From: a virus
Lineage: Duplodnaviria; Heunggongvirae; Uroviricota; Caudoviricetes
Length of the DNA: 21,250 bases
Direction: 5' to 3' (one strand)
IMG/VR virus record: IMGVR_UViG_2609459795_000004
Shown here: positions 168-21,250 of the stretch, one piece after another
Layout of the letters: each line of letters opens with the position of its first letter
How positions within the stretch are numbered: the stretch's first letter is position 1
Notes under the pieces: model-generated
Database searches by the model: none
What the model saw: the letters and a program-made list of their open reading frames with translations, nothing else
Told to the model about the DNA's origin: nothing
Made by a program: the position numbers and the translations under genes

Positions 168-177
168 ATTCACCCCA

Positions 178-204
178 CAAAAAAGCCCGCCTGAACCGGC
201 GGGC
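178..204 (-). terminator. Rho-independent terminator downstream of lom
   Basis: Top strand has A-run 178-184, then GCCCGCC (185-191), loop TGAACC, GGCGGGC (198-204). On the minus strand this is a 7-bp GC stem followed by a U7 tract, 28 nt after the lom stop. Confidence 0.7.
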
Positions 205-231
205 TGTCATAACACTGTGTTACCTGGCTAA

Positions 232-831: not shown

Positions 832-855
832 AATTACCTCTCGCTTTTCTGCAAT

Positions 856-879
856 AAAAAAGGCGTCATTCCTGACGCC
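856..879 (-). terminator. Rho-independent terminator downstream of J
   Basis: Top strand A-run 856-861, GGCGTCA (862-868), loop TTCC, TGACGCC (873-879). On the minus strand this is a stem-loop followed by a U6 tract, 23 nt after the J stop and 24 nt before the lom start codon. Confidence 0.65.
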
Positions 880-901
880 CTTTATTGGGGTTATAAATAT
901 T

Positions 902-3900
902 TCAACGAATACTGATGCCGGAAGCGGCTTTTTTGGTCACAATCACCGTACAGTCGGTGATATTGCCTGCCCCCTGATTGCCTTTCTGGAAAATCTTAAA
1001 CTCCAGAGTGACGCTTCCCCTGCCACTCGGCATATCAATAACTGCACTGTAACTACCGGGAATGGCCCCTTTAGTTTCTCTGGATGCGATTAATACGCCG
1101 TTTTTGCGAACTTCAAAACCATAACCCGTGTATCGCGTGCCTCCCGGGTTATTTCCGCTCCCCGGATCGTCATACGCTATACCGTTAAAAATAATGGGCG
1201 GAATAATAATCTGGCGGTCAAAGTTATGATCATCGCTGATGGTGACTGTAACCGTACCGTTTGGTGTTTCCGTGTTACCCCACGTACCGACTTTTTTCGG
1301 GAAGGCTTTTGATACAGCTTTAACGAAATCTCCTCTGACCTGGGTCGCCTCCAGCATGCCCTTAATCGTACAGTTCTGGTTAATCGTGACATTGTTGAGC
1401 GTTCCTGAGTTCGCATTCACACTGCCACTGATATCCGCATTTTTCGCCGTCAGTCTCCCGTCTGATGTCAGGGAAAATGCCGGAGGATTACCGCCGCTGG
1501 TAATGGTGGGGGCCGTCAGGCGTTTCAGGAACACTTCATTCATGAATATCTGATCGCCCTGACCAACAAACATCGGTTTTGTGTTGCCATTTGCAGGATT
1601 AATCATCGCAATCCTGTCTGCCGCCAGCAGCACCTGACTCTGCATGCCGTCGGGGGTGTTCTCAATACCGACACCGATACCCGCAATATAAAGGCGTCCG
1701 TCCTGCATCTGCTGCAGCTTCACAGCCCACATGCTGTTCAGATTATTATTTGTATCAACCTGAACCTTCTGTATCTGCTGAATTGCCGCACTCTGGTCTT
1801 CCAGTTTCTTATTGACGGTCTGCGTGATTTCATTGCTGACATCCTTAATGGACGTCCTGATTTCAGCCAGGTCAGGCGCAAGCTGACCGTTATCAATCTG
1901 CGTCCACAGCTCCTGAGCCAGATGGGTTTTCCCTATCTCGCCTTTGAAAAAATCCAGATAGCCGGATGCATCATCACTCGGCTGACCAACAGCCTCCACG
2001 AATGCCGATTTGCCAACGGTGTTCACACTGCGAACGTAAAAATAATAATCATAGCCCGGCCTGATATTGATACTGGCGGCTATCCAGTACAGCCCCGTGC
2101 CAAGGTAGCGGGCTGTGGTTTCAACCTGCCTGATATCGGTAATCCGCTTTTCCGAGAACCAGAACTCAAACTGTACCGTCGGGTCATAAACGGCAAGATG
2201 CGGCGTGGCGGTTATCTGAAAATAGCCCGGCGTCAGCTCAATCCTCGACGGTGCTGCCGGTGCGGCAATCCGGAACGATACCGACGCCGGATCTCCCTGC
2301 TGCCCCCACGCATTTACCGCCCGGACTGTCAGCCTGTAGTTCCCCAGCGCCAGTTGCGTGAAGCGGTATGTGGTTTCCGTCGTCCGGGCCGTGCTGACCA
2401 GCCGCTCACTGCCGTCGTCCGCTGTTACGGTCAGACGGAGCAGGAAGCTCACGCCCTTCACCACCTTCGGTGTGTCCCAGCGCGCCAGCACCTGATATTC
2501 CCCGCTGTCTGCAGTGACTTCTGCGGTCAGGTGCTGCACCGCTGGCGGCGTGACACCGTTCACCGTGCCACTCTGTTCGCCGTCAAAGTGCGCCCCGTTA
2601 TCCACGATGGCCTCTTTTTCCGGCACATGCTGCACGGCGGTGATGGCATACGTACCGTCATCGTTCTCACGGATACTCACACAGCGGAACAGGCGCTGGC
2701 GCAGCGTCGGCAGCTTCAGCCCCCACACGCTGTATTCGGCAACGCCGTCAGGAACACGGCTCACTTTCACCTTAAGTCCGTCGGTGACGGACTGAACCTC
2801 CACGCTGACCGGATTACCACTTCCGTCAACCAGGCTTATCAGCGTGGTACCGGAGGATGGCAGCGTGATTTCACGGTCGAGCGTCAGCGTCCGGGTCTGG
2901 CTGTTCACCGCCAGCACGCGACCACCGGTGCTGATACCGGCATAGTCATCATCGCAGATTTCAATGACATCGCCCGGTACATGGCGAAGCCCTTCAGCAC
3001 CCACGCTGAAATCCACGGTCTGCGTCTCCAGCAGTTCCGTTTTAATCAGCCACAGCCCGGCGCGGTGTGCCTGCCCCCGGCTGGTACAGCCAAAGGCATC
3101 CATCTTCGTGACATTACGACCGTAACGGGCAATGGCCTGCGTATCTTCAACAAGCTCTGTCGCCGTCTCCCAGCCGTTGTCCGGGTCAATCCAGTTCACC
3201 TCAACGGCATTATGGCGGTCCTTCAGGGCGCTGAAGCTGTAGCGGAACGGCGCGCCATCATCCGGCATCACCACATTACTGCGGTTATAGGTCCACACCT
3301 TATCCGACGGTCGGTCCTGCACGAACGTCAGCGTCTGCCAGTTCCATACCGGCATACAGCGCATCGCCGAGCAGAAATCACTGAGCACATCCCACGCCTT
3401 GCGCTGTGTGGTCAGGTACGCATTACAGGTGATGCGCGGCTCCGTGCCGCCAAAGCCGTCCGGCACTGACTGGTCGCAGTACTGGCCGATGACATACAGC
3501 GCCCATTTGTCCACATCCGCCGCACCAAGACGTTTCCCCATGCCGTAGCGTGGATGGGTCAGCATATCCCACAGACACCAGGCCATGTTATTGCTGTATG
3601 CTGGCTTAAACGTTCCGTCCCAGATACCGCTGTATTGCCGAGTCTGCGGGTTATAGTTCGACGGCACCTGCAGAATACGCCCGCGCAGATGATAATTACG
3701 GCTCACCTGCTGGCTGCCGAACTGCTCCGAATCCACCTGTACGCCGACCAGTGCCGTGTTCGGGTAGCACTGTTTCACATCGATGATTTCGGTGTATGAC
3801 GACCAGAGCGTTTTGTTCTGCAGCTGGTCTGTGGTGCTGTCCGGCGTCATCCTGCGCATCCGGATATTGAACGGGCGCGGCGGCAGGTTACCCACCACCA

Positions 3901-4399
3901 CCGATGCTAGATACTGTGAGGTGGTTTTGCCTTTAATGGTGATGTCTTTTTCCGTCACCCAGCCACCATTACGCTGTATCTGAACCAGCAGGCGGACTTC
4001 CGACGGATTCCGGTCCCCCTTTGAGGTGGTTTCCACCAGTGCCTGCACACCGAAGGTAAAGCGCAGACGGTCGATGTTTGCCGACGTGATGGTCCGGGTA
4101 ATCGGCGTGTCGTACTTCACTTCCGTACCCAGCACCGTCTCGGAGCCGGAGGATTCAAATCCCTCCGGCGGTGTCTGCTCCTGCTCACCGGCCCGGAACA
4201 CCACCGTGACGCCGGATATATTGGTATTCCCCTCACTGTCCAGCACCGGCGTACTGTTCAGCAGCACGCTTTTTAATCCATCCACCGGACCTTCAACCGG
4301 CCCTTCGCTGATGGCATCGATCACACTCAGCAGCTGCGTGGACTTCAGGTTGTCCTTCGCTTCGCGCGGGGTATGCCCCTTACTGCTGCCTTTACCCAT
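902..4399 (-). CDS. J: Tail tip / central tail fibre protein J (host-specificity protein), 1165 aa
   Basis: ATG at 4397-4399 with an upstream GGAG. The N-terminal two thirds ([34 protein letters not shown]...) match lambda gpJ as I recall it. The C-terminal third differs and the protein is 1165 aa against about 1132 aa in lambda. Confidence 0.9.
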
Positions 4400-4410
4400 T
4401 CGTCATGCTC

Positions 4411-4441
4411 CATAAACGATAAAACCGCCCGGAGGCGGTTT
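4411..4441 (-). other. Intergenic stem-loop between I and J (terminator-like, weak U tract)
   Basis: Top strand AAACCGCC (4422-4429), loop CGGA, GGCGGTTT (4434-4441). On the minus strand the stem is followed by UAUCGUUUAU, which is U-rich but interrupted. Confidence 0.4.
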
Positions 4442-4459
4442 CACATAAAACATTTTGCA

Positions 4460-5101
4460 TCAGCGACCAATCACCACAACCTGACCACCATCCCCTTCGT
4501 CTGCCGTGCTGATCTCCTGAGAAACCACGCGTGACCCCACGCGCATTTCACCGTACAGAACCGGCAGAACATTGCCCTGGGCAACCATGTTATCCAGTGA
4601 AGAAAAATAGGTATTCTGTTTGCCGTTATCCGTTGTCTGTGTGCGGGGGGTTTTGGGTTTAGGGGCCAGCATCTGTGCAACACCGCCAAGCGTCATACTG
4701 GCACCGAGAGAAAACAGCAGATTACTCGCCATAATTCCTACCCCCGGCATCCATATAGCAACCGCCATAACAGCCGCCCCCAGCACAGCCTGAAACACAC
4801 CGCCACTTTTGGCTCCTGCCAGACGCGGCACGATATGGATCACGGCACCATTTTCCAGCGGCTCATTAAGACGGGCAGACAATTCGGTTTCACCTGCATC
4901 ACGCCCGGCAATGCGTACCTGGTACCAGCCGTCGCTCAGTTTCTGACGAAATGCCGGGATCTGCATGGCCAGCGCCCGGATGGCTTCGGACCCCGTTTTC
5001 ACTCGAAGGTCGATGCGGCGGCCAAATCGTTGTAAATCCCCGTAAAGGCAGATGCGTGCCATGCCCGGTGACGCCAGAGGGAGTGTGTGCGTCGCTGCCA
5101 T
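4460..5101 (-). CDS. I: Tail tip assembly protein I
   Basis: 213-aa ORF with ATG at 5099-5101 and no in-frame alternative start upstream before a stop. It overlaps the 3' end of K by 103 nt in another frame, the lambda K/I arrangement. Sequence matches my recollection of lambda gpI; I recall lambda gpI as 223 aa, so either my memory or a small indel accounts for the difference. Confidence 0.82.
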   Translation of the reverse strand: MAATHTLPLASPGMARICLYGDLQRFGRRIDLRVKTGSEAIRALAMQIPAFRQKLSDGWYQVRIAGRDAGETELSARLNEPLENGAVIHIVPRLAGAKSGGVFQAVLGAAVMAVAIWMPGVGIMASNLLFSLGASMTLGGVAQMLAPKPKTPRTQTTDNGKQNTYFSSLDNMVAQGNVLPVLYGEMRVGSRVVSQEISTADEGDGGQVVVIGR

Positions 5102-5742
5102 TTGTCGGTGTACCTCTCTCGTTTGCTCAGTTGTTCAGGAATATGGTGCAGCAGCTCGCTGTCACCACAGTAAATGGCGGCATGATTCGGCACCGATGAA
5201 CCAAAACAGCACAGCAGCACATCGCCCGGCTGCGCCGCTGACAACGGCACCTGATACAGCCCTGTGGCCTCCAGATTATCCAGATAGAGATTCTGACCGT
5301 TACGCCACCAGTCATCCCCGCGATGAAAATCCGGCATCTCAATTCCCGCCAGATGGTAAGCGTCCCGGAACAGCGTGTAACAGTCCGTTACCCCGTGCTC
5401 AAAGCGCCGCCCGGTGAGATGCGGCACACAGCGGAACTTATGAATCGTCCCCCGGCAGACCAGCCACCACGGCAAATCACTCTGCACCTGCAGCCGCCGG
5501 TCGGCCTCACTCAGCCAGGGCAGACCACCGGGGTGGCTGTGGACCAGCGCCACAATCTCACCCTGCATTTCTGCCTGCAGCCAGTCTTCCGGCGACATAC
5601 GGAAATACGCCTCCGGCTCACCGGAGATATTCACGCAGGGAAAATATCTTTCCCCCTCCGGCGTGCTTACCACGAAGCCGCACGACTCCGCTGGCGCACA
5701 TCGCCGGGCGTGCGCCAGAATCGCTGATTCTGTCTGTGTCAT
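4999..5742 (-). CDS. K: Tail tip assembly protein K (MPN/JAMM plus NlpC/P60 type), called from the ATG 4 nt after the L stop; lambda's canonical 199-aa form would start at 5598
   Basis: Contains the JAMM-like motif HSHPGGLPWLSEAD and a C-terminal region with the Cys/His pattern of NlpC/P60 peptidases. The frame is open upstream of the canonical Met (MSPEDWLQAE...). ATG at 5740-5742 (MTQTESAIL...) follows the L stop (5747-5749) by 4 nt. The track's 5784 start is a TTG inside L and is unlikely. Confidence 0.78.
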   Translation of the reverse strand: MTQTESAILAHARRCAPAESCGFVVSTPEGERYFPCVNISGEPEAYFRMSPEDWLQAEMQGEIVALVHSHPGGLPWLSEADRRLQVQSDLPWWLVCRGTIHKFRCVPHLTGRRFEHGVTDCYTLFRDAYHLAGIEMPDFHRGDDWWRNGQNLYLDNLEATGLYQVPLSAAQPGDVLLCCFGSSVPNHAAIYCGDSELLHHIPEQLSKRERYTDKWQRRTHSLWRHRAWHASAFTGIYNDLAAASTFE

Positions 5743-5746
5743 GGGT

Positions 5747-6445
5747 TTACTGCGAAAGTTTGTTAATGGAAAGGAAGCCGCCAAAGTTGCCGACGTTATT
5801 GCGGAACTTACAACCGCTCAGGCATTTGCTGCATTTATCCTTCGTGATATCGGACGTTGGCTGGTCATATTCATCCGCGACCGCCGGACCGTGATAACCG
5901 CACTCATCGCCGCGATAGGTCCAGGTGCAGGTGTGGGCCAGCATGATACGTCCCGGAAAAACAGCGCCGTCCGTTTCCGTCGGCGTGGCCAGTACAAAAG
6001 AGGCACTGACCGCGCTCAGTTCGCTGCACTGCTCGATGCGCCAGCGGCTGATCACCTCCTGCTCCGGATCGGCGTAACTGTTTCCGTTGACGAAGTTCAC
6101 CGCATCCAGAAAACGGGCGTAAACCTTACGCCGGACCACCGTTCCGCCGACCAGACTCTGCATATCTTCCGCCATCCAGGTGACCATACCGTACAGGTTA
6201 GAAACCGTCAGCGTGGGGCGCGTACTGGTGCCTTTGCCATTCAGTTCAAAACCGCTCCCCTGAATGGGATACGGCTGATACTGTCGCCCCTGCCAGGTGA
6301 CCGGCTCACCTTTTTCGTTCTGCTCATTACAGAAAAAATAACGTTCTCCACCGACCTCTGTCAGGTCGATTTCCCAGAGCACCACGCTGGCCGACTGCTC
6401 CGCACGGGTGCATTCATTCAGTGTTTCCTGCCGGATATCCTGCAT
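5747..6445 (-). CDS. L: Tail tip assembly protein L
   Basis: 232 aa, the same length as lambda gpL, and the sequence matches my recollection of it (MQDIRQETLNECTRAEQSASVVLWEIDLTEVGGERYFF...). Its start overlaps the M stop. Confidence 0.92.
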   Translation of the reverse strand: MQDIRQETLNECTRAEQSASVVLWEIDLTEVGGERYFFCNEQNEKGEPVTWQGRQYQPYPIQGSGFELNGKGTSTRPTLTVSNLYGMVTWMAEDMQSLVGGTVVRRKVYARFLDAVNFVNGNSYADPEQEVISRWRIEQCSELSAVSASFVLATPTETDGAVFPGRIMLAHTCTWTYRGDECGYHGPAVADEYDQPTSDITKDKCSKCLSGCKFRNNVGNFGGFLSINKLSQ

Positions 6446-6774
6446 CAGTTCACCACCTGTTCAAACTCTGCGCTGAACTCAACACGCAGCATACTGACCC
6501 GCGACGACCATTTTGCGCAGGTCACCTTTATCTGCCGCCACTCATAAGGCGGCGTCCACAGAAAGGATTTCCAGCCCCCGTGCTCTTCCAGAAACGACTC
6601 CAGTACCGTGGCCTCCTCACGGGGGACAGAAAGCGTCACGCTGTACGTTTTCAGGTTGGCATTCAGCCCGGCAGGCGCTCGCTGAGAATAGCCATCACCA
6701 AAGCGCACCTTTCTTACAGAAGGGACCGAAGCCACATCCATACCGGGTTTCACTTTCCAGCGGAAGGTCTTCAT
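6445..6774 (-). CDS. M: Tail tip protein M
   Basis: 109 aa, MKTFRWKVKPGMDVASVPSVRKVRFGDGYSQRAP..., matching lambda gpM in sequence and length. Its start overlaps the H stop by 4 nt. Confidence 0.92.
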   Translation of the reverse strand: MKTFRWKVKPGMDVASVPSVRKVRFGDGYSQRAPAGLNANLKTYSVTLSVPREEATVLESFLEEHGGWKSFLWTPPYEWRQIKVTCAKWSSRVSMLRVEFSAEFEQVVN

Positions 6775-9332
6775 CGTCCACCTCCGGAGAACAGGCCACC
6801 ATCACGCATCTGTGTCTGAATTTCATCACGGGCACCCTTGCGGGCCATGTCATACACCGCCTTCAGAGCAGCCGGACCTATCTGCCCGTTCGTGCCGTCG
6901 TTGTTAATCACCACATGGTTATTCTGCTCAAACGTCCCGGACGCCTGCGACCGGCTGTCTGCCATGCTGCCCGGTGTACCGACATAACCGCCGGTGGCAT
7001 AGCCGCGCATCAGCCGGTAAAGATTCCCCACGCCAATCCGGCTGGTTGCCTCCTTCGTGAAGACAAACTCACCACGGTGAACAATCCCCGCTGGCTCATA
7101 TTTGCCGCCGGTTCCCGTAAATCCTCCGGTTGCAAAATGGAATTTCGCCGCAGCGGCCTGAATGGCTGTACCGCCTGACGCGGATGCGCCGCCACCAACA
7201 GCCCCGCCAATGGCGCTGCCGATACTCCCGACAATCCCCACCATTGCCTGCTTAAGCAGAATTTCTGTCATCATGGACAGCACGGAGCGGGTGAAGCTGC
7301 GCCAGTTCTGTTCACTGCCGGTCAGCATCGCCGCCATATTCTGCGCAATACCATCAAAGGTCTGCGTGGCAGCACTTTTAACCTGCGACATACTGTCCGT
7401 GGCACTCTCTTTCCACTCGCTCCAGCCGGACCTGAGGCCTGCCATCCAGCTCCCGCGAAGCAGGTCTTCAGCCGCCCAGGTCTTTTTCTGCTCTGACATG
7501 ACGTTATTCAGCGCCAGAGGATTATCGCCATACTGTTCCTTCAGGCGCTGTTCCGTGGCTTCCCGTTCTGCCTGCCGGTCAGTCAGCCCCCGGCTTTTCG
7601 CATCAATAGCGGCCCGTTTTGCCCGTTGCTGCTGTGCGAATTTATCCGCCTGCTGCGCCAGCGCGTTCAGGCGCTCCTGATACGTAACCTTGTCGCCAAG
7701 TGCAGCCAACTGGCGTTTATACTCCAGCGTCTCATCTTTATGCGCCAGCAGGGATTTCTCCTGTGCAGACAGCTGGCGACGTTGCGCCGCCTCCTCCAGT
7801 ACCGCGAACTGACTCTCCGCCTTCCACAAATCCCGGCGCTGCTGGCTGATTTTCTCATTTGCTCCGGCATGCTTCTCCAGCGTCCGGAGTTCAGCCTGAA
7901 GCGTCAGCAGGGCAGCATGAGCACTGTCTTCCTGACGATCGCCCGCAGACACCTTCACGCCGGACTGTTTCGGCTTTTTCAGCGTCGCTTCATAGTCCTT
8001 TTTCGCCGCCGCCATCAGCGTGTTGTAATCTGCCTGCAGGATTTTCCCGTCTTTCAGTGCCTTATTCAGTTCTTCCTGACGGGCGGTATATTTCTCCAGC
8101 GGCGTCTGCAGGCGTTCGTAAGCCTTCTGCGTCTCTTCGGTGTATTTCAGCCGTGACGCTTCGGTATCGCTCTGCTGCTGCGCATTTTTGTCCTGTTGAC
8201 TCTGCTGCTCAGCCTTCTTTCGGGCGGCTTCAAGCGCAAGACGGGCCTTTTCACGATCATCCCAGTAACGCGCCCGCGCTTCATCGTTAACAAAATAATC
8301 ATCCTTGCGCAGATTCCAGATGTCGTCTGCTTTCTTAAACGCAGCCTCTGCCTTAATCAGCATCTCCTGCGCGGTATCAGGACGACCAATATCCAGCACC
8401 GCATCCCACATGGATTTGAATGCCCGCGCTGTCCTGTCTGCCCAGGTCTCCAGCGTGCCCATGTTCTCTTTCAGGCGGCGGGTCTGGTCATCAAACCCTT
8501 TCGTTGCGGCCTCGTTCGCCGCCTGCAATGCCCCGGCTTCATCGCCGGAACGCTGCAACTGAGCAACATACGCAATCTGCTCCGCCGTCACGTTATGGAA
8601 CTGGCGTGCCATCGCCGTCAGCCCCGACGTCGGGTCTGTGGTCAGCTTCCCGAAGGCTTCAGCGACCTTGTCCACCTCCACGCCGGATGCAGAGGAGAAA
8701 CGCGCCACACTCTGGCTGATGGACGCAATCTGAGCCTCACCGCTTACCCCCGCCTTAACCAGTGCGCTGAGTGACTCGCTGGTCTGGTTAAACGTCAGCC
8801 CTGCCGCCTGCCCGGCTCTGGACAGGACCAGCATACGATCTGCCGTCAGTCCCGCCTGATTGCCGGAAAGGACCAGCGTTTTGTTGAAATCGGACAGGGT
8901 TGAGTTACCCTGATACCAGGCATACGCCAGCGCACCGGTCGCCACCGCCAGCGAGGTGGCCCCGACCATCGGCAGGGTGATCGCACCGGCAAGCCCCCGG
9001 AACATGGGGATCATCCCGCCGAAGGAGTCCTTAACCTGACCACCCTGTTGCAGCAGGATCAGCCACGGGCTTTGCCCGCCTGCAAGCTGCGTGGCCACGT
9101 CGGTGAACTGTGCAGGCAGCATACGCATGGCGGCTTTATACTGCCCGACGGAAATCCCCGCTTTCTGTGCAGCCAGCGCCTGTCGGCTCAGCGACTGTTC
9201 AACGACTGCCGCTGTTTTTTTCGCATCAGTTTCCGTACCGGAAAAATGACGCCTGACTCTGGCCATCTGCTCGTCAAATCTGGCCGCATCCAGACTTAAA
9301 TCAACGACCAGATCGCCTACCGGTTCAGCCAT
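6771..9332 (-). CDS. H: Tail tape-measure protein H
   Basis: 853 aa, the same length as lambda gpH; matches my recollection along its length (MAEPVGDLVVDLSLDAARFDEQMARVRRHF... ending ...MRDGGLFSGGGR). ATG at 9330-9332. Confidence 0.93.
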   Translation of the reverse strand: MAEPVGDLVVDLSLDAARFDEQMARVRRHFSGTETDAKKTAAVVEQSLSRQALAAQKAGISVGQYKAAMRMLPAQFTDVATQLAGGQSPWLILLQQGGQVKDSFGGMIPMFRGLAGAITLPMVGATSLAVATGALAYAWYQGNSTLSDFNKTLVLSGNQAGLTADRMLVLSRAGQAAGLTFNQTSESLSALVKAGVSGEAQIASISQSVARFSSASGVEVDKVAEAFGKLTTDPTSGLTAMARQFHNVTAEQIAYVAQLQRSGDEAGALQAANEAATKGFDDQTRRLKENMGTLETWADRTARAFKSMWDAVLDIGRPDTAQEMLIKAEAAFKKADDIWNLRKDDYFVNDEARARYWDDREKARLALEAARKKAEQQSQQDKNAQQQSDTEASRLKYTEETQKAYERLQTPLEKYTARQEELNKALKDGKILQADYNTLMAAAKKDYEATLKKPKQSGVKVSAGDRQEDSAHAALLTLQAELRTLEKHAGANEKISQQRRDLWKAESQFAVLEEAAQRRQLSAQEKSLLAHKDETLEYKRQLAALGDKVTYQERLNALAQQADKFAQQQRAKRAAIDAKSRGLTDRQAEREATEQRLKEQYGDNPLALNNVMSEQKKTWAAEDLLRGSWMAGLRSGWSEWKESATDSMSQVKSAATQTFDGIAQNMAAMLTGSEQNWRSFTRSVLSMMTEILLKQAMVGIVGSIGSAIGGAVGGGASASGGTAIQAAAAKFHFATGGFTGTGGKYEPAGIVHRGEFVFTKEATSRIGVGNLYRLMRGYATGGYVGTPGSMADSRSQASGTFEQNNHVVINNDGTNGQIGPAALKAVYDMARKGARDEIQTQMRDGGLFSGGGR

Positions 9333-10163
9333 ACCGGACTCCTCCTGCGATCCCTTCTGATACTGTCATCAGCATTACGTCATCCTCCGTCATGTCCGCC
9401 ACATCCGGGGAAGTAGGGATAACTTCATTCCCGTCCGGGCCAAAACGAACGCCTCCGGCAAGCCCTGCCGCTTTCTGCATCAGCACATCATCTTCAGGCT
9501 CTTCGTCAGCCTCGCGCCGGTTCAGCAGACTGAAATCCAGCGGATGCATCTCCGGATCGCTGAAAAACAGGCTGAGCACGGTGTACGTCAGCCCGGAAAA
9601 GTGCATATCCAGCAGAACATCATGAAAATAATGGGTACTGTAAAAGCGGTGCCAGTCGGCATACTCCGTGGATGACATCCCGGCAAGCATGGCGCGCCAG
9701 TCGGGTCGCCCCATCTCACGCGCCAGTTTCAGGGCAAAACTCAGCTCACCGTCGAACACTTTCCCGCAGAAACAGGCTCTGCAGGCCCGGCGTCCTCTGC
9801 CTGTTCAGGAGCATCATTCACCACAAACTCATACATACCGGACAGCCGGTACACCACGTTTTCAGCATGAGAAATTGCCTCTGTGGGCCAGGTGGTAAGC
9901 ACTTCCTGCTCAATCTGTTTAACGGCTTCATTCATGGAAGGCAGCTTTGTCTTCTTCGGATGGTTATGCCACAGGGACATCGCCACCAGAAACGCGCCGG
10001 TTCTGATGGCGTCTTCCACAGTAAACTTCCGGTTGCTGTCTGACTCCGCCTGTTCTGCCTGCCGTTTCATCAGGGCGAGATGCTCAATACGCTGCAGGGC
10101 TGACAGTTCAGAAAGCGTGACGGTCACACCGTTATGTTCAAATGATTCGGTTTTCAGGAACAT
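9325..10163 (-). CDS. T: Tail assembly chaperone G-T fusion, made by a -1 programmed ribosomal frameshift from the G frame into the T frame
   Basis: The T frame (..GKVFDGELSFALKLAREMGRPDW...) has no ATG of its own near its 5' end and begins inside the 3' end of G. The slippery heptamer G GGA AAG lies at 9765..9759 (minus strand), exactly where the frames overlap. Established for lambda gpG/gpGT. Confidence 0.85.
9741..10163 (-). CDS. G: Tail assembly chaperone G
   Basis: 140 aa, MFLKTESFEHNGVTVTLSELSALQRIEHLALMKRQAEQ..., matching lambda gpG in sequence and length. Starts 16 nt after the V stop. Confidence 0.92.
   Translation of the reverse strand: MFLKTESFEHNGVTVTLSELSALQRIEHLALMKRQAEQAESDSNRKFTVEDAIRTGAFLVAMSLWHNHPKKTKLPSMNEAVKQIEQEVLTTWPTEAISHAENVVYRLSGMYEFVVNDAPEQAEDAGPAEPVSAGKCSTVS
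9759..9765 (-). other. Slippery heptamer GGGAAAG for the G to G-T -1 frameshift
   Basis: Top strand CTTTCCC at 9759-9765, which is GGGAAAG on the minus strand. In the G frame it reads GCG GGA AAG (A-G-K of ...SAGKCSTVS); in the -1 frame it reads GGG AAA GTG TTC ... (G-K-V-F-D-G-E-L). Confidence 0.85.
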
Positions 10164-10178
10164 CGCTGACTCTCCGGA

Positions 10179-10919
10179 TTAACTGGCGGTGACGTTGATT
10201 TCTGCAACCGCAGCAAACTCACCATTACCAGATACGACCGGAATGTTGACCTTGCCTGCAGCAACACCTTTCACGGTGATGGTCATACCACTGACCGACA
10301 CGGTGGCTTTTGTTTTATCCGCAGACACCGCACGGAAGCTCTTGTCGGTTGCGCCCTCCGGCTGGAATGCCACGGTCAGCGTGGTGCTCTGCCCTTTCAC
10401 TACGGAAGCACTGGCGGGTGTCACCGTCATGCCGGTTGTCGCCGTCACAGTGCTGCGATCTTCTGCCATCGACGGACGTCCCACATTGGTGACCTTCACC
10501 GTGCGGGTGATCACTTCCTTCGCCGTCACCGCCTTACCGATACTGCTGACCCAGCCACGGAACACATCGACCGTGCCGTTCGGGAAGCGGATTTTATAGG
10601 CACGGGTATCGCCTTCATTAAACCACGCCAGCAGCGCCTGCTGCCCCTGCTCTCCGGGCATCCACGCCAGCGTGAAGCTGGTATCTCCGGCAGATTTCTG
10701 CCCCTGCCCGGTCGCAGTCCAGTCTGCATCTTCATCATCGAGATAGCTGTCGTCATAGGACTCAGCGGTCAGTTCGCCGGGCGTCAGGTCTTTAACTTTT
10801 GCCAGACGCGACCAGTCAACGTCTGAAAGCGGATTCGCATAAGGGTCACCGCTCCCCTTATAAACCCACAGGGTGGTCCCGGCACCTTTCACCGGCATTG
10901 TAGGATTTGGTACAGGCAT
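10179..10919 (-). CDS. V: Major tail tube protein V
   Basis: Matches lambda gpV from [33 protein letters not shown].... I chose the ATG at 10917-10919, which has a GAGGA ribosome-binding site 5 nt upstream and lies after the U stop; the track's start at 10949 is inside U. The C-terminal Ig-like region (...[18 protein letters not shown]) is present. Confidence 0.9.
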
Positions 10920-10926
10920 AGCGTCC

Positions 10927-11322
10927 TCACATTTCATAGGTAATGACATAAGTCAGATCGGCTGAACTCCACAGGCCCGCATCATCGTCGCGCCGGTAGT
11001 CATAGCCGCTGGCCACCATACTGGTGATCAAATCTGACAGTGCCGGGATATCGCTCATCACCGGATAAATCCGGGACTCCATCCACGCATCCAGCTCTGA
11101 ATCCGGCACCTGAGCAGGCAGGAAAACTTCGATATGCAGCTCCGCCTGCCAGGTATCGCTGTCCAGCTCTTCGCCCGTGTATTCAGCGCCGGTGAGATAA
11201 ACGGCAACTGCCGGAAAATCCGCCTCATCAAAAACAGCGGGGCGACCATCAAAAAACGTCGCCCCGGTGTCATGCTTCTCCAGTGCATCCAGTACGGCTG
11301 CACGGAGTTCAGTATGTTTCAT
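10927..11322 (-). CDS. U: Tail terminator protein U
   Basis: 131 aa, [48 protein letters not shown]..., matching lambda gpU. Its start overlaps the Z stop by 4 nt. Confidence 0.93.
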
Positions 11323-11897
11323 CGCTTTATTACCATCCTCAGTTGATGCTGCAGCGCATAGCCCAGCTCTTTCGGAAGACGCTCACGCCGTATCCGCTCA
11401 ATATTCTGTTTAAACGCCGTGGTCAGCGGCACCGCCATCGGAATTTTCACCACATCAATGGGGTAACGATTTTTCCCGGCCACACGCTGCATAACATGCC
11501 AGCGGCCATTTTTCAGTTGCTGAATAAACGCGCCGGGAATACGACGGTTTCCCACCACAAGCACGCTGCCGCCACCTTTCAGGGATGAACGCTGCCCCTT
11601 TTTACGACGCCTGCGGCGCGAAAGGACAACCCGCGCATTACCCAGCTTGATTAGGGGCAAATCCCCCCGGTTAACTTTGATTCTGGCCTGCGGATTTTTG
11701 ACCGTGGCCCTTTTCAGCCTGGCCCTTTCCTTTACCAGTTTCCGGCGTACCTTTGTCTCACGGGCAACCTGTGACGCCGACTGCGATATCGCGGATGAAG
11801 CAACGCGGTTAATGGCCATTGCGGCGGCACCAGGCACCGCCGTTTTGCTGATACGGCTGAGGTTTTCAACGGCCTGCTCAAGACCTTTTATGGCCAT
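11319..11897 (-). CDS. Z: Tail completion protein Z
   Basis: 192 aa, MAIKGLEQAVENLSRISKTAVPGAAAMAINRVASSAISQ..., matching lambda gpZ in sequence and length. Confidence 0.93.
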   Translation of the reverse strand: MAIKGLEQAVENLSRISKTAVPGAAAMAINRVASSAISQSASQVARETKVRRKLVKERARLKRATVKNPQARIKVNRGDLPLIKLGNARVVLSRRRRRKKGQRSSLKGGGSVLVVGNRRIPGAFIQQLKNGRWHVMQRVAGKNRYPIDVVKIPMAVPLTTAFKQNIERIRRERLPKELGYALQHQLRMVIKR

Positions 11898-11908
11898 ACA
11901 TCCCCCTT

Positions 11909-12262
11909 TCAGCGGCGACGGTTAACGGCAGGCGGTACGCCCCGCCCAAGCCAGAGATGACAGCTTCCACCATCATCCGGCGAAACCCGGTCTATCCAGA
12001 AGTTTTCCTCACCGATGGTCAGCGTGTCTCCACGCCGCAGTTGCCGCACATCATCAGTCCGGACAAACAGGGACGGGCTGGAGCCTTCAACGCGTACGCC
12101 CTGTCCGGCATAGCTGATATTTTCAGGGTCATCAAAAACACCACGTATTACTGCGCCGGACTGCTCACCGGATGTCATGGTGGCTGACGTTCCCATGTAC
12201 CCGCGTATCGTTTCATCGGCGCGGGCAATGGCAGCATCGAACAGGTTATCAAAATCAGCCAC
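11909..12262 (-). CDS. FII: Head-tail joining protein FII
   Basis: 117 aa, MADFDNLFDAAIARADETIRGYMGTSATMTSGEQSGAVIRG..., matching lambda gpFII in sequence and length. Confidence 0.92.
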   Translation of the reverse strand: MADFDNLFDAAIARADETIRGYMGTSATMTSGEQSGAVIRGVFDDPENISYAGQGVRVEGSSPSLFVRTDDVRQLRRGDTLTIGEENFWIDRVSPDDGGSCHLWLGRGVPPAVNRRR

Positions 12263-12273
12263 AGCGCCTCCCG

Positions 12274-12669
12274 TTATTGCATTCTGGCCAGGCCACGTTC
12301 TGTCATTTCGGCTGCCACACCGGCAGAGACACGAAACGCCGTTCCCGGCAGCACAAATGCCACAGGTTCATCCCGCGTGGCGTGAAGTGCATCGGTATGC
12401 AGCGTCACCAGTGCCACAACCGTGACCAGAGCAGCCGTATCAGTCACGGTATCCGTCTGTGCTGATACCACCTCATTTTCATGTCCGGTCAGCGCATTTT
12501 CCGGTCTGAGAGGGGTATCCTGACCGGCAGCGTCATCCGTGTCATCAAGCTCTTCTTCCAGCTCTGCCACACGGAGCGCCAGTTCTTCTTTCGTCCCCGT
12601 CAGGCTGACATCACGGTTCAGTTGCTCACCCAGCGACCGGAGACGGGCAATCAGTTCATCTTTCGTCAT
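12274..12669 (-). CDS. FI: DNA packaging / head assembly protein FI
   Basis: Matches lambda gpFI from MTKDELIARLRSLGEQLNRDVSLTGTKEELALRVAELEEELDD.... I chose the ATG at 12667-12669, which has a GGAGGAG ribosome-binding site just upstream; the track's 12708 start adds 13 unsupported codons. Confidence 0.9.
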   Translation of the reverse strand: MTKDELIARLRSLGEQLNRDVSLTGTKEELALRVAELEEELDDTDDAAGQDTPLRPENALTGHENEVVSAQTDTVTDTAALVTVVALVTLHTDALHATRDEPVAFVLPGTAFRVSAGVAAEMTERGLARMQ

Positions 12670-12710
12670 GGACTCCTCCACAGAGAGAAAATGGCCCCGA
12701 AGGGCCACGA

Positions 12711-13736
12711 TTACGCCAGTTGTACGGACACGAACGCATCAGGGTCAGCCAGCAGCATCAGCGGTGCTGACTGAATCATGGTGAACTCACGCGCCGGATC
12801 ACCGGTGGTCACCCAGTTTTTCGGGTAGCGGGCAGAGGCGTTAATGCCTTCGCGCTGTGCGTCCGCATCCTGAATGCAGCCATAGGTGCGCAGACCGCGT
12901 GCCTGAGTGTTCCCCAGCACCATCGTGTTGTCCGGCAGGAAGTTCTTTTTGACGTCGTTTTCCACGTACTGTCCGGAATACACGACGATCGCCACATCGC
13001 CATACATCCCCTTATAGGACACCGCTTCGCCCAGGTCTTTTACCGCTGTCTCCAGCTCGGAATTAGAGCCGCGACGGGTATCCAGCTTCTCCCTGACGGC
13101 TTTGAAGGAACGGAACAGCGCCCAGCCTTTCGGATCGAACACGATGATATTCACCACACCGCTGGCGTTCAGCGCGTAGGCTTCGATATCGTCGGTCGGG
13201 TCATACGTGGACTTGTCACGCTTGCTCCACTCCGTGCCGCCGGACTGTGTGATGTTGTTCGCCGCACTGCGGCCCATATCCACTTCAACCGGATCGAAGG
13301 CTTCACCGGTCATGGTGTATTTGCCCTTAAGCACGGCAGAAACTGCCTGCATCTCTTCGACCTGAGCAATGGCCAGCTCTTCGTCTCGCATGTTCTGCAT
13401 GATGATGCGACGGCGGCGGTAAGCCGGGTCCGCCAGATTCTGCGGATCTTCATCCGGCAGGCGACGCAGGGTCATCTGCGGATTCACCTCATGCTTCGGC
13501 TTGACATATCCCGGTGTAAATTCAGAGGTGGAGCCGCCACGGGAGCGGATAACCTCACCGGAAACAATCGGCGAAACGTACAGCGCCATGTTTACCAGTC
13601 CCGGAATTTGTGAGAGATAGACTTTCTCCGTGGTGAAGGGATAGCTCTCACGGAAAAAGAGACGCAGAAACAGCGGATCAAACTTAAATTTCTTCTCATT
13701 TGCCGCCAGCAGCTGGGCGGTTGTGTACATCGACAT
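12711..13736 (-). CDS. E: Major capsid protein E
   Basis: Matches lambda gpE (341 aa) from MSMYTTAQLLAANEKKFKFDPLFLRLFFRESYPFTTEKVYLSQIPGL.... Start ATG at 13734-13736; the track's upstream extension (MRLFLRDFF) is not supported. Confidence 0.93.
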   Translation of the reverse strand: MSMYTTAQLLAANEKKFKFDPLFLRLFFRESYPFTTEKVYLSQIPGLVNMALYVSPIVSGEVIRSRGGSTSEFTPGYVKPKHEVNPQMTLRRLPDEDPQNLADPAYRRRRIIMQNMRDEELAIAQVEEMQAVSAVLKGKYTMTGEAFDPVEVDMGRSAANNITQSGGTEWSKRDKSTYDPTDDIEAYALNASGVVNIIVFDPKGWALFRSFKAVREKLDTRRGSNSELETAVKDLGEAVSYKGMYGDVAIVVYSGQYVENDVKKNFLPDNTMVLGNTQARGLRTYGCIQDADAQREGINASARYPKNWVTTGDPAREFTMIQSAPLMLLADPDAFVSVQLA

Positions 13737-13749
13737 AAAAAAATCCCGT

Positions 13750-13770
13750 AAAAAAAGCCGCACAGGCGGC
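13750..13770 (-). other. D-E intergenic stem-loop followed by a U7 tract (terminator-like or mRNA-stabilising hairpin inside the late operon)
   Basis: Top strand A7 (13750-13756), GCCGC (13757-13761), loop ACAG, GCGGC (13766-13770). On the minus strand this is a 5-bp GC stem then UUUUUUU, 21 nt after the D stop and 13 nt before the E start. Confidence 0.5.
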
Positions 13771-13791
13771 CTTTAGTGATGAAGGGTAAGG

Positions 13792-14124
13792 TTAAACGAT
13801 GCTGATTGCCGTTCCGGCAAACGCGGTCCGTTTTTTCGTCTCGTCGCTGGCAGCCTCCGGCCAGAGCACATCCTCATAACGGAACGTGCCGGACTTGTAG
13901 AACGTCAGTGTGGTGCTGGTCTGGTCAGCAGCAACCGCAAGAATGCCAACGGCAGCACCGTCGGTGGTGCCATCCCACGCAACCAGCTTACGGGTGGAGG
14001 TGTTCAGCATCAGCGGGGTCATTGCAGGCGCTTTCGCACTCAATCCGCCGGGCGCGGTTGCGGTATGAGCCGGGTCACTGTTGCCCAGCGGCTGGTAATG
14101 GGTAAAGGTTTCTTTGCTCGTCAT
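13792..14124 (-). CDS. D: Capsid decoration protein D
   Basis: 110 aa from [40 protein letters not shown]..., matching lambda gpD. ATG at 14122-14124 with an AAGGGA ribosome-binding site upstream; the track's start two codons earlier is unlikely. Confidence 0.92.
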
Positions 14125-14133
14125 AAACATCCC

Positions 14134-14739
14134 TTACACTGGTGTGTTCAGCAAATCGTTAACGGCATCAGATGCCGGGTTACCTGCAGCCAGCGGTGCC
14201 GGTGCCCCCTGCATCAGACGATCCAGCGCAGTGTCACTGCGCGCCTGTGCACTCTGTGGTGCAACTGCCAGAATGCGGCGGGCCGTTTCCACGGTCATAC
14301 CGGGGGGTTCGGCCAGCACGCGTGCCTGTTCTTCGCGTCCGTGAGCCTCCTCACAGTTGAGGATCCCCATAATGCGACTGTTTTCTGCCGCAACCGCTGC
14401 GGTGATCTGCGCGTTCACGTCCGGCTGCGCAGCGCTGGCGTTCTCGCCCTCCGTCGCTTGCACCACGCCAGTAACGTCAGCCTGCGAAGCAGTGGCTGAA
14501 ACAGTTGTTGATTGAGTCTCTTTGGTCATTCGCCCTCCTGAGAGACGGGATTTACGTGCATCCAGTGCATCACGCATGACGGTGATCGCATCGGTACTGT
14601 TAACAAGTTCATCAGCCAGTCCGGCATCAATGGCCTCCTGACCGCTGTACACTGCAGCCTCGGTATCCAGCACAGCCTGCACGGACAGGCCGGTATATGC
14701 CGACACCTTCTGTGCAAACATCCGGCGGGTTGCATCCAT
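14134..14739 (-). CDS. nu3: Scaffolding protein Nu3, an in-frame internal start within C
   Basis: Internal ATG at 14737-14739 (MDATRRMFAQKVSAYTGL...) in the C frame, giving a 201-codon product that shares the C stop. This is the nested C/Nu3 arrangement known for lambda. Confidence 0.75.
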   Translation of the reverse strand: MDATRRMFAQKVSAYTGLSVQAVLDTEAAVYSGQEAIDAGLADELVNSTDAITVMRDALDARKSRLSGGRMTKETQSTTVSATASQADVTGVVQATEGENASAAQPDVNAQITAAVAAENSRIMGILNCEEAHGREEQARVLAEPPGMTVETARRILAVAPQSAQARSDTALDRLMQGAPAPLAAGNPASDAVNDLLNTPV

Positions 14740-15433
14740 CCGGGACTGCAGTGTTTCCCGGACATCATCCGGTAGATGGCTGTAGGGGTTGCCATCCACC
14801 TTATGGCTGCCGCTGTAAATCAGCGTGATTTCCACGCCCTGTTTCTCCAGCGCAGCACCGTAATTACTGTGAGCCATCATGACGCCGATGGAGCCTGTCC
14901 GGGCGGTCTGCGTGACCAGACGTCGGGAGGCGGCGCTGGCAAGCAACTGACCTGCACTGCAGTTCATGTCGTTGGCCAGCGCCCATACCGGCTTTATGTC
15001 ACGCACACGGGCGATGATGTCAGCGCAGTCAAATGCCCCTGCCACCATCCCGCCTGGCGTATCCATATCGAGCAGAATGCCGTCCACCATCGGGTCGCTG
15101 GCAGCCTGTTGCAGACGGGCGATAATGCCGTTGTAACCGGTCATCCCCGAATACGGCTGCAGCGCTCGCGTCCGACTGACCAGCGTGCCGGACACCGGCA
15201 GCACGGCGATGCCGTTCATGACCTGATAACTGCGGGCCTGTCGTGGTCCGTCATCATCAACGGATAACGCCAGCGCCGCGGGTGCCTCTCCGGCAGTCAG
15301 GCTGTCGCCGGATACCGCATCCGTCAGGCGGCTGATCCCAAGCTGGCCTGCAAGCGCACAAAAGAAAACCCGCGCATAGGCGGGTTCAAGCATCAGCGGC
15401 TCATTAAAGGCCATACTGGCAATATGCGGGAGA

Positions 15434-15453
<20 letters not shown>
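14134..15453 (-). CDS. C: Capsid assembly protease C (S49/ClpP-like serine protease fused to a scaffold domain), GTG start
   Basis: 439 codons from GTG at 15451-15453 (..TAELRNLPHIASMAFNEPLMLEPAYARVFF...), with a GGAGG ribosome-binding site 7-9 nt upstream. Overlaps the B 3' end by 20 nt as in lambda. The track's longer 484-aa ORF starts inside B. Confidence 0.88.
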
Positions 15454-19134
<3,681 letters not shown>

Positions 19135-19160
<26 letters not shown>

Positions 19161-19680
19161 TCAGCAACCCCGGTATCAGTTCATCCAGCGCGGCTGCTTT
19201 GTTCATGGCTTTGATGATATCCCGTTTCAGGAAATCAACATGTCGGTTTTCCAGTTCCGGAAAACGCCGCTGCACCGACAGGGGGATCCCGTCGAGAATA
19301 CTGGCAATTTCACCTGCGATCCGCGACAGCACGAAAGTACAGAATGCGGTTTCCACCACTTCAGCGGAGTCTCTGGCATTTTTCAGCTCCTGTGCGTCGG
19401 CCTGCGCACGCGTAAGTCGATGGCGTTCGTACTCAATAGTCCCTGGCTGGAGATCTGTCTCGCTGGCCTGCCGCAGTTCTTCAACTTCCCGGCGCAGCTT
19501 TTCGTTCTCAATTTCAGCATCCCTTTCGGCATACCATTTTATGACGGCGGCAGAGTCATAAAGCACCTCATTACCCTTGCCACCGCCTCGCAGAACGGGC
19601 ATTCCCTGTTCCTGCCAGTTCTGAATGGTACGGATACTCGCACCGAAAATGTCAGCCAGCTGCTTTTTGTTGACTTCCAT
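19135..19680 (-). CDS. nu1: Terminase small subunit Nu1
   Basis: 181 aa, MEVNKKQLADIFGASIRTIQNWQEQGMPVLRGGGKGNEVLYDSAAVIKWYAERD..., matching lambda gpNu1, with the N-terminal winged helix-turn-helix that binds cosB. ATG at 19678-19680. Confidence 0.93.
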
Positions 19681-19689
19681 TGTTCATTC

Positions 19690-19857
19690 CACGGACAAAA
19701 ACAGAGAAAGGAAACGACAGAGGCCCAAAAGCTCGCTTTCAGCACCTGTCGTTTCCTTTCTTTTCAGAGGGTATTTTAAATAAAAACATTAAGTTATGAC
19801 GAAGAAGAACGGAAACGCCTTAAACCGGAAAATTTTCATAAATAGCGAAAACCCGCG
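19690..19857 (-). other. cosB, the terminase (gpNu1) binding region with R1, R2 and R3 elements and an intervening AT-rich IHF-type site
   Basis: Three copies of the GGAAACG core sit in the arrangement I recall for lambda R1/R2/R3: AAAGGAAACGACAG (about 19709-19722), its inverse CTGTCGTTTCCTTT (about 19746-19759), and CGGAAACGCC (about 19810-19819). An AT-rich block at about 19775-19800 lies between R2 and R3. The region is the reverse complement of the lambda left-end sequence as I recall it. Confidence 0.8.
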
Positions 19858-19869
19858 AGGTCGCCGCCC
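19858..19869. other. cosN, the 12-nt cohesive-end sequence (terminase nicking site) at the junction of the mature-genome left and right ends
   Basis: Top strand AGGTCGCCGCCC is the reverse complement of GGGCGGCGACCT, the lambda cohesive end. The flanking 19870-19900 (CGTAACCTGTCGGATCGCCGGAAAGGACCCG) is the reverse complement of the lambda right-end terminus as I recall it, which should include cosQ. Confidence 0.85.
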
Positions 19870-20068
19870 CGTAACCTGTCGGATCGCCGGAAAGGACCCG
19901 CAAAATGATAATAATTATCATCTACATGTCACAACGTGCATCTACGCCATCAAACCACGTCAAATAATCAATTATGACGCAGGTATCGTATTAATTGATC
20001 TGCATCAACTTAACGTAAAAACAACTTCAGACAATACAAATCAGTGACACTGAATACAGGGCAACCTC

Positions 20069-20302
20069 ATGTCAACGAAGAACAGAACCCGCAGAACAAC
20101 AACCCGCAACATCCGCTTTCCTAACCAAATGATTGAACAAATTAACATCGCTCTTGATCAAAAAGGGTCCGGGAATTTCTCAGCCTGGGTCATTGAAGCC
20201 TGCCGCCGGAGACTGTGCTCAGAAAAAAGAGTTTCTCCTGAAGCAAACAAAGAAAAGAGTGACATTACTGAATTGCTCAGAAAACAGGTCAGACCAGATT
20301 GA
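20069..20302 (+). CDS. Small basic hypothetical protein (77 aa), possibly a ribbon-helix-helix DNA-binding protein; accessory ORF just right of cos
   Basis: ATG at 20069-20071 with a 77-codon frame. The N-terminus is Arg/Thr-rich (MSTKNRTRRTTTRNIRFPNQMIEQINIALDQKGSGNFSAWVIEACRRRL), with a pattern of a short strand then two helices that suggests an Arc/CopG-like fold. The fold is my inference from the sequence. Weak ribosome-binding site. Confidence 0.5.
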   Translation: MSTKNRTRRTTTRNIRFPNQMIEQINIALDQKGSGNFSAWVIEACRRRLCSEKRVSPEANKEKSDITELLRKQVRPD

Positions 20303-20359
20303 AGCAATTTAGATAATCGTGCAGACTACGCCCCATCATATCACATGGAAGGTACTACA

Positions 20360-20770
20360 ATGGCTCAGGTTGCCATTTTTAAACAAATATTCGATAAAGT
20401 GCGAAATAATTTAAACTATCACTGGTTTTATTCTGAACTAAAACGTCACAATGTCTCACATTACATTTACTATTTAGCCACAGAGAATATTCATCTTGTT
20501 CTTGAAAACGATAATACGGTTTTAATAAAAGGACAGGGTAAGGTTGTAAATGTAAGATTTTCAAAAAATAAATGCCTTATAGAAGCCACCTTAAAAGGAT
20601 TCAAATCAGGAGAGTTATCATTTTACGAATACAGGAAAAATCTTGCTACAGCAGGGGTTTTCAGATGGATTACAAATATCCACGAAAACAAAAGGTATTA
20701 CTATACCTTTGATAATTCATTACTATTTACTGAGAACATTCAGAACACTACACAAATATTTCCGCACTAA
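20360..20770 (+). CDS. AT-rich hypothetical protein (136 aa), resembling the YbcV-type small prophage proteins found near the packaging genes of lambdoid prophages; function unknown
   Basis: ATG at 20360-20362 preceded by GGAAGG with a 7-nt spacer; the track's start at 20345 lacks a ribosome-binding site. The gene is visibly AT-rich and stands out from the GC-rich structural module. [45 protein letters not shown]... resembles E. coli DLP12 YbcV as I recall it. No signal peptide or transmembrane segment. Confidence 0.6.
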
Positions 20771-20848
20771 ATCATAACGTCCGGTTTCTTCCGCGCCAGA
20801 ACCGGACTCGCTGGCATGATGAAATATGTGTACTCGGTAACCCCGGTG

Positions 20849-21250
20849 GTAAGCGTAAAGCCAATGCCGTCTGTAACACCTGCTCCTTGCAGACTAAATT
20901 AGAGCTCCTTCTAAATTAGACGGAGTTCTATTGATGGATAAACCTACAGACTGGCGCTCCGGAACCCGCCGGATATTTTCTAATGAATTTAAACTTCATA
21001 TGGTTGAACTGGCTTCGAAACCAAATGCCAATGTTGCACAACTGGCCCGGGAACATGGCGTTGATAACAACCTGATTTTTAAATGGCTACGCCTCTGGCA
21101 AAGAGAAGGACGTATTTCTCGTAGAATGCCTCCAACTATTGTAGGCCCTACAGTATCACAATCTTTTCCGACCTCTCCGACTCTGGTTCCAGTGGAACTT
21201 ATCGACACCCCGCGCTGTGCTACAGATGCTCCTGCTCCGGAGGCATTATC
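20849..21250 (+). mobile_element. Probable insertion sequence (IS66-family-like), left end only, truncated by the window edge
   Basis: GTAAGCG at 20849-20855 matches the typical start of IS66-family terminal inverted repeats. About 85 bp downstream an ORF begins with an N-terminal helix-turn-helix of the kind found in IS accessory (OrfA/TnpA) proteins. The sharp boundary immediately after the phage accessory gene fits an insertion. Family assignment is from memory. Confidence 0.55.
20934..21250 (+). CDS. IS accessory protein (TnpA/OrfA-like, helix-turn-helix), 3'-truncated by the window end
   Basis: ATG at 20934-20936 and an open frame to the window end (105 codons, no stop): MDKPTDWRSGTRRIFSNEFKLHMVELASKPNANVAQLAREHGVDNNLIFKWLRLWQREGRISRR.... 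The pattern RxFSxEFK ... VAxLARxHGV ... LxxWxR is the N-terminal HTH signature of IS transposase OrfA proteins. Absent from the ORF track because it has no stop in the window. Confidence 0.6.
   Translation, partial: MDKPTDWRSGTRRIFSNEFKLHMVELASKPNANVAQLAREHGVDNNLIFKWLRLWQREGRISRRMPPTIVGPTVSQSFPTSPTLVPVELIDTPRCATDAPAPEAL

Follow-up and report, generated by a model that had tools for sequence, protein, structure and literature searches.

The 21,250-nucleotide (nt) stretch of DNA analysed here (the window; IMG/VR record IMGVR_UViG_2609459795_000004, Caudoviricetes) is the late region of a lambda-like prophage in reversed orientation. Next to its cos site stand two open reading frames (ORFs), both uninterrupted and both on the strand opposite to the late operon:

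20069-20302, + strand: ORF1, a ynfO/ylcI-type gene (DUF3950) of 77 amino acids (aa), assigned through Pfam PF13132 and NCBIfam NF041551
20360-20770, + strand: ORF2, a ydfO/ybcV-type gene (DUF1398) of 136 aa, or 141 aa if translation starts at 20345

Judged by their sequences, these are the catalogued YnfO/YlcI (DUF3950) and YdfO/YbcV (DUF1398) genes that lie beside cos. Our overall reading, which we put at a probability of about 0.7, is that they represent two independent, known prophage accessory genes, ORF1 probably encoding a regulator and ORF2 a protein that would act by binding a partner. The region would accordingly be seen as two separately evolving genes at the lysis/packaging junction of lambdoid phages, both presumably transcribed antisense to the late operon, neither of them likely to be needed for lytic growth nor to depend on the other. 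The families, the ORF2 fold and the Qin-type arrangement are all already known and do not constitute a novel island, so that our result mostly re-identifies two catalogued families in a standard position, one of them with a solved structure. What it sharpens is the view of two separate genes, the first with a strongly constrained, putative ribbon-helix-helix (RHH) domain at the lysis/packaging junction and the second with a PdhR-box region of its own.

Identity, selection and separability of the two genes

ORF1 matched Pfam PF13132 (DUF3950) with 74.6 bits (E = 5e-21; cut-off 25) and NCBIfam NF041551 (YlcI/YnfO) with 35.7 bits (cut-off 30), and its product departs from YnfO of Escherichia coli K-12 at only 2 of 77 residues (97% identity). 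ORF2 spans positions 1-119 of the 119 in the Pfam profile PF07166 (DUF1398; YdfO/YbcV/YcgX; 147 bits, E = 3e-43, cut-off 22) and is about 79% identical to YdfO, whose nuclear magnetic resonance (NMR) structure is 2HH8. Of 5426 complete E. coli genomes, 4743 (~87%) contain similar DNA. An earlier note on this stretch (the original prediction) had placed two same-strand ORFs between cos and an insertion sequence (IS), outside the morphogenesis module, which is borne out by the open frames at 20069-20302 and 20345-20770. It had further described ORF2 as AT-rich and compositionally foreign, in agreement with a GC content of 31% against 57% for bases 1-19680 and a third-position GC (GC3) of 30% against 63% for the large terminase gene. 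The idea of a special two-gene island did not survive comparison, since Qin, ev099, Chlobot and PhiR49_1 contain this pair with equal gene sizes, and the exact ORF1 and ORF2 proteins are each found on at least 1000 contigs, named 'YlcI/YnfO family protein' and 'DUF1398 family protein', respectively. For ORF2, the internal ATG at 20360 is more likely to be the start than 20345, because a Shine-Dalgarno sequence (GGAAGG) lies 8 nt upstream of it and the resulting 136 aa equal the RefSeq annotation of K-12 ydfO and ybcV.

The Qin prophage of K-12 has the same layout, with nohA (- strand), ynfO b4533 (234 bp, + strand) and ydfO b1549 (411 bp, + strand), the pair being divergent from the Nu1 homologue. 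Qin also shares the 17-mer of the PdhR box described below, and its YdfO has the fold of ORF2 (2HH8), whereas at the DNA level ORF2 is a diverged allele (synonymous divergence, dS, ~0.64 versus ydfO). The right end of lambda and the ylcI-ybcW-ybcV genes of DLP12, which the original prediction had named as comparators and which are indeed the homologues, likewise have both genes beside cos, with order and strand conserved. There, a segment of ~590 bp with the opposite-strand gene lambdap79/ybcW is placed between them that is missing from the window, Qin and ev099; no homologue of lambdap79 was found anywhere in the window. The statement that lambda lacks this exact arrangement is therefore literally true on account of the ~590-bp lambdap79 segment, yet misleading, for both genes are there, with order and orientation unchanged. 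In lambda, the counterpart of ORF1 has nearly the same first 49 codons and a different, shorter tail (64 aa), and lambdap78 is 76% identical to ORF2. Regarding the lambda annotation, the ylcI-like ORF1 homologue (64 aa; NC_001416 48157-48303, complement) corresponds to no annotated feature in NC_001416, and lambdap78 is annotated with 177 aa where its homologues and ribosome-binding site indicate 136 aa, i.e. an N-terminal over-extension.

Compared with diverged homologues, the first 49 codons of ORF1 gave ratios of nonsynonymous to synonymous divergence (dN/dS) of 0.03-0.23 at dS values of 0.44-2.0, and ORF2 gave 0.18-0.39 at dS values of up to 0.70. Together with the Pfam E-values of 5e-21 and 3e-43, these low ratios identify both as genuine genes under purifying selection and not as chance ORFs. 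When lambda, Qin, DLP12 and the window are compared with one another, even the synonymous sites in the 5' part of ORF1 hardly differ (dS 0-0.13). Recombination has been reported to be stimulated on the ORF1 side of cos (PMC3945230), which fits this near-identity, and the latter carries no extra information on function. Beyond this part, the alignment with lambda shows identity fading after ~20215-20235 and returning at 20287; since it decays within ORF1, the tail of the gene is mosaic, in keeping with a DUF3950 family whose members have residues 1-49 in common and unrelated tails. These tails do not co-vary with the downstream gene or with the presence of DUF1398.

The original prediction had likened the two genes to a toxin-antitoxin, exclusion or anti-defence pair. 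Our searches with tblastn found 155 phage records encoding the DUF3950 domain, against 43 for DUF1398, which leaves at least 112 with the former and not the latter; two IMG/VR scans that returned near-identical copies only were left out of these co-occurrence statistics. In Stx-type and related HNH/TerS/TerL phages a lone DUF3950 gene is located between Rz and the HNH gene, on the opposite strand and 41 bp from the HNH start, and in one Nu1-type prophage DUF3950 is followed by an unrelated TonB_C gene, without DUF1398. Distant DUF1398 genes, for their part, occur on their own, either in a setting of ordinary chromosomal genes or in the interval from the Q antiterminator gene to that of the holin. 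The two genes are not, then, co-inherited as the conserved adjacent pair that is typical of type II toxin-antitoxin systems, nor did either match any toxin or defence family in Pfam or PADLOC; with PADLOC-DB 2.0 there was no hit for ORF1 and only Csx23 for ORF2 (E = 0.023, 12.7 bits). ORF1 and ORF2 are separable genes and do not form a functional pair, and the likeness to such loci finds no support.

ORF1 as a candidate regulator and ORF2 as a candidate binding protein

The conserved segment of ORF1, RNIRFPNQMIEQINIALDQKGSGNFSAWVIEACRRRL, follows the pattern of an Arc/Mnt-type RHH domain. By hhalign, against a small RHH alignment entered by hand, residues 13-53 of ORF1 fell on residues 10-49 of Arc in a strand/helix/Gly-loop/helix register (P = 0.0014, probability 18%), the AlphaFold2 (AF2) monomer model placed helices at 19-32 and 34-52, and PHROGs returned a weak HicB-like match. 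Nevertheless, none of the 19 ORF1-family members matched an RHH Pfam family even at E <= 10, and no sequence match for ORF1 was found in the Protein Data Bank (PDB). Of the earlier description of ORF1 as a small basic putative RHH protein, the basic character therefore stands (isoelectric point 10.6) and the RHH fold is made plausible by hhalign and AF2, whereas a match to RHH entries in Pfam or the PDB failed to appear. We give roughly even odds to ORF1 being an RHH regulator whose binding to DNA we infer from these models. In the proposed mechanism, its invariant, basic, 49-residue N-terminal domain would most likely form an Arc/Mnt-like RHH dimer, making ORF1 probably a small DNA-binding regulator, and its mosaic C-terminal tail would probably be dispensable. 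The Arc and Mnt proteins of phage P22 offer a functional analogy for ORF1 only: they are likewise small and basic, and their succession of N-terminal strand, helix A, loop with Gly and helix B is the one predicted for ORF1, but ORF1 has no significant sequence or structure match to them. Both arc and mnt are embedded in the late region, as is the ORF1 gene.

The position of the DUF3950 gene is regular. In the window, Qin, DLP12, lambda, the HNH-type phages and the Nu1-type prophage without DUF1398 it is found at the end of the right arm, where it adjoins the first gene for packaging and runs antisense to the late transcripts. The DNA upstream of it is unrelated between Nu1-type and HNH-type phages, while the putative DNA-reading strand of the protein is invariant. 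Within the spacer between cos and ORF1 of the window we noticed a Fur-box-like palindrome, CAAAATGATAATAATTATC (ATGATAAT-A-ATTATCAT), at 19901-19921, just inside cosQ and ~150 bp upstream of the ORF1 ATG, which shares 16 of 19 positions with the Fur consensus and was equalled in none of 100 shuffles. It recurs in the nohA-ynfO interval of Qin and the nohD-ylcI interval of DLP12 and is absent upstream of the DUF3950 genes of HNH-type phages; this element travels with the lambda-type cos and not with DUF3950. The same spacer contains an inverted repeat at 19967-19999, identical in lambda, with 13-nt arms (ATCAATTATGACG and CGTATTAATTGAT) 7 nt apart and 70-100 bp upstream of the ORF1 start, a possible operator, promoter element or host-factor site.

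As to ORF2, its family shows the YdfO fold, with the duplicated alpha2-beta3 unit. The few nearly invariant residues, Y35, T41, N43, G99, W103 and Y114, are mostly aromatic or otherwise non-catalytic in type, which suggests that ORF2 may be a binding protein rather than an enzyme. Searches for a catalytic signature and for structural relatives were negative. The highest 19-residue hydropathy windows of the two proteins reach 0.34 and 0.39 (the latter in ORF2), indicative of a cytoplasmic location, and ORF2 has no detectable signal peptide or hydrophobic segment. The picture that these features draw is one of a cytoplasmic, orphan-fold protein most likely acting through partner binding, as we infer from the conserved residues.

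The control of ORF2 appears to be its own. The sequence AACAGGTCAGACCAGAT at 20283-20299 is an exact match to the PdhR box listed for the ynfO>ydfO peak of Qin in a gSELEX study (PMC7660256), and it lies just where the sequence becomes homologous to lambda again, which makes the box a part of the DUF1398 cassette. In K-12, ybcV mRNA is down 10-fold in a pdhR mutant and up more than 1000-fold when T4 MotB disturbs H-NS silencing, and ydfO is induced by an ionic liquid; in lambda, knock-down of lambdap78 by CRISPR interference (CRISPRi) leaves plating unaffected. These PdhR, H-NS and ionic-liquid responses of the homologues, together with the CRISPRi result, point to ORF2 as a moron-type accessory gene that is non-essential and regulated on its own. 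Its deviant base composition and its place between conserved modules are those of a moron, and otherwise related phages either have it or lack it between Rz/bor and cos. ORF2 would thus have an upstream control region including the PdhR box and, being AT-rich, would likely be under H-NS silencing, its expression in the lysogen being confined to particular conditions. The bor and lom morons of lambda are similar in being non-essential accessory genes of deviant base composition between modules, bor being moreover adjacent and on the same strand in lambda. They differ in encoding envelope proteins with known lysogen expression, ORF2 being predicted as cytoplasmic.

A distant DUF1398 gene (29% identity) was met at 1531-1923 of a contig from Logan SRR23754875, between the Q antiterminator and holin genes. 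The Q-holin interval is a classic moron slot, held by stx in Stx phages, and the presence of a DUF1398 gene in it implies that the family moves as an independent cassette. A profile search for further distant members of DUF1398 yielded only close relatives among its best 120 matches.

Concerning other signals in the region, promoter- and terminator-like sites are no more numerous than in shuffled sequence, the hairpin after ORF2 is devoid of a U-tract (z = -1.7), and Rfam gave no credible match over 19600-20900.

Weighing of the competing explanations

Several observations weigh against two accessory genes with the roles proposed here. None of the papers found gives a function for either family; the regulatory evidence for ORF2 comes from its K-12 homologues in the literature; a scan of the + strand detected neither a consensus sigma-70 promoter nor a terminator; and no operator common to Nu1-type and HNH-type phages was seen upstream of the DUF3950 gene. 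A bolder version, which we consider unlikely, joins both genes in one scheme: ORF1 would be an Arc-like repressor acting from the cos-proximal, first-injected end, in a role common to phages with two unrelated packaging systems, and ORF2 a conditional effector with an orphan fold. In that scheme ORF1 could silence packaging genes or late read-through in the lysogen or gate adjacent morons, and ORF2 could be a lysogenic-conversion or phage-warfare effector under PdhR, H-NS and possibly Fur. If either part were true, a function would be at hand for the last conserved unassigned genes of the lambda right end, carried by ~87% of complete E. coli genomes.

An improbable alternative, although the one that fares best, is that one or both genes serve in phage-phage warfare, through superinfection exclusion, anti-phage defence or anti-defence from the DNA end that enters first. 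The right end of lambda is packaged last and injected first, and the genes themselves, AT-rich accessory genes that are not essential, run antisense to the late operon as the lysogen-expressed bor does. The segment is moreover engaged in defence interactions, since the neighbouring lambdap79 of lambda activates the Vulcan NADase defence, and lambda-vir escapers of Vulcan drop lambdap79 by recombination with Qin so that their right end becomes Qin-type (bioRxiv 10.64898/2026.09.04.749371, a 2026 preprint). The window, with its Qin-type arrangement lacking lambdap79, shows the very organization gained by these escapers (window 20215-20286 versus lambda segment 590-1160). Nonetheless, neither gene has a PADLOC, Pfam or structural match to defence or anti-defence families, no phenotype is reported in any paper found, and DUF1398 also occurs in plain chromosomal neighbourhoods.

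It is very unlikely that ORF1 is instead a cos/packaging accessory factor, or a repressor silencing terminase in the prophage, with ORF2 as a passenger. That DUF3950 always adjoins the first packaging gene (Nu1 or HNH) and diverges from it, across two unrelated terminase systems, would suit such a role, as would a minus-strand promoter-like site at 19932-19905 pointing to Nu1. Such promoter-like sites are no commoner than in shuffled sequence, however, and the DNA upstream of the gene bears no relation between Nu1-type and HNH-type phages despite the invariance of the putative DNA-reading strand. Packaging of lambda DNA, besides, has been reconstituted without any such factor.

The chances are slimmer still for a type II toxin-antitoxin or abortive-infection module composed of ORF1 as RHH antitoxin and auto-repressor and ORF2 as toxin. 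The at least 112 phage records with DUF3950 and without DUF1398 speak against it, as do the opposite-strand gene that splits the two in lambda and DLP12, the solitary DUF1398 genes of chromosomes, the ORF1 tails that vary regardless of the downstream gene and the lack of resemblance of ORF2 to any toxin family or PADLOC model. The production of YdfO for NMR (2HH8) and the inclusion of ybcV in an ASKA over-expression screen also argue, weakly, against toxicity. Finally, ORF2 as a virion or envelope protein, a notion owed to database labels only ('head protein', PHROG 413; 'putative envelope protein'), is already contradicted by its strand opposite to the late operon, the non-essentiality of lambdap78 in lambda, the lack of DUF1398 from most DUF3950 phage records including HNH-type Stx phages, the lack of a signal peptide or hydrophobic segment and the homologues in non-phage chromosomal contexts.

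Surroundings of the pair and related records

The remaining features of the window that border on the two genes are the following:

17235-19160, - strand: large terminase gene
19135-19680, - strand: Nu1 gene (Pfam Phage_Nu1, E = 4e-101)
19858-19869: cosN cohesive-end sequence AGGTCGCCGCCC, the reverse complement of lambda GGGCGGCGACCT, from direct reading and the lambda alignment
19893-19899: cosQ, AGGACCC, the reverse complement of lambda GGGTCCT, by the sequence and position of cosQ in lambda
20215-20286: mosaic segment, from the lambda alignment, with ~590 bp including lambdap79/ybcW at the same place in lambda
20283-20299: PdhR-box 17-mer AACAGGTCAGACCAGAT, overlapping the 3' end of ORF1, 61 bp upstream of the ORF2 ATG
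20816-20848, + strand: initial 11 codons of a conserved ORF (54 aa) interrupted by the IS, from Chlobot CDS0086 and ev099 gp70
20849-21250, + strand: left end of an IS66-family element with terminal repeat GTAAGCG, running past the window edge

The cos region of the window aligned with that of lambda in a near base-for-base match. Unlike Qin, which is a remnant, the window keeps the full set of terminase, head and tail genes. Downstream of the ORF2-type gene there is gnsB in Qin and the IS66-family insertion in the window; in lambda the pair is followed by bor, which the window does not have.

The closest relatives are the phages ev099, Chlobot, PhiR49_1 and Kati, whose DNA is 98.7-99.7% identical to the window from cos through ORF1 and ORF2 into the beginning of the 54-aa ORF; the ORF2 protein is 100% identical in four phage records. 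In these phages the 54-aa ORF is intact and followed by KilA-N or lysis genes, where the window has the IS. The element, 99.8% identical to annotated IS66-family transposase regions, sits after codon 11 of this ORF, which in Chlobot and ev099 is found whole downstream of the ydfO-type genes. No match covering at least 80% of 19700-21250, and hence the IS junction, was obtained among the 5426 complete E. coli genomes, so that the DNA may stem from a different strain or from a Shigella.

A reported rise in oxidative-stress resistance upon YdfO over-expression (PMC4077768) was considered and discarded, as the source cited there (Wang 2010) names YfdO of CPS-53, revealing a mix-up of gene names. 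A similar slip between ydfO (Qin, DUF1398) and yfdO (CPS-53) occurs in PMC9181523.

The hit lists are inflated by dozens of frameshifted or extended DUF1398 and DUF3950 'proteins' (search hits P0019-P0118) on ENA contigs of ~3.4-3.6 kb, which probably reflect not natural diversity but a control amplicon of the lambda right end assembled with many errors. Likewise, MW057783.1 ('Campylobacter phage CJLB-4', 48361 bp) carries a lambda ybcV-type gene with 76.3% identity, as in lambda, at ~80 bp from lambda's position, and this record, about as long as lambda, looks like lambda DNA under another name.
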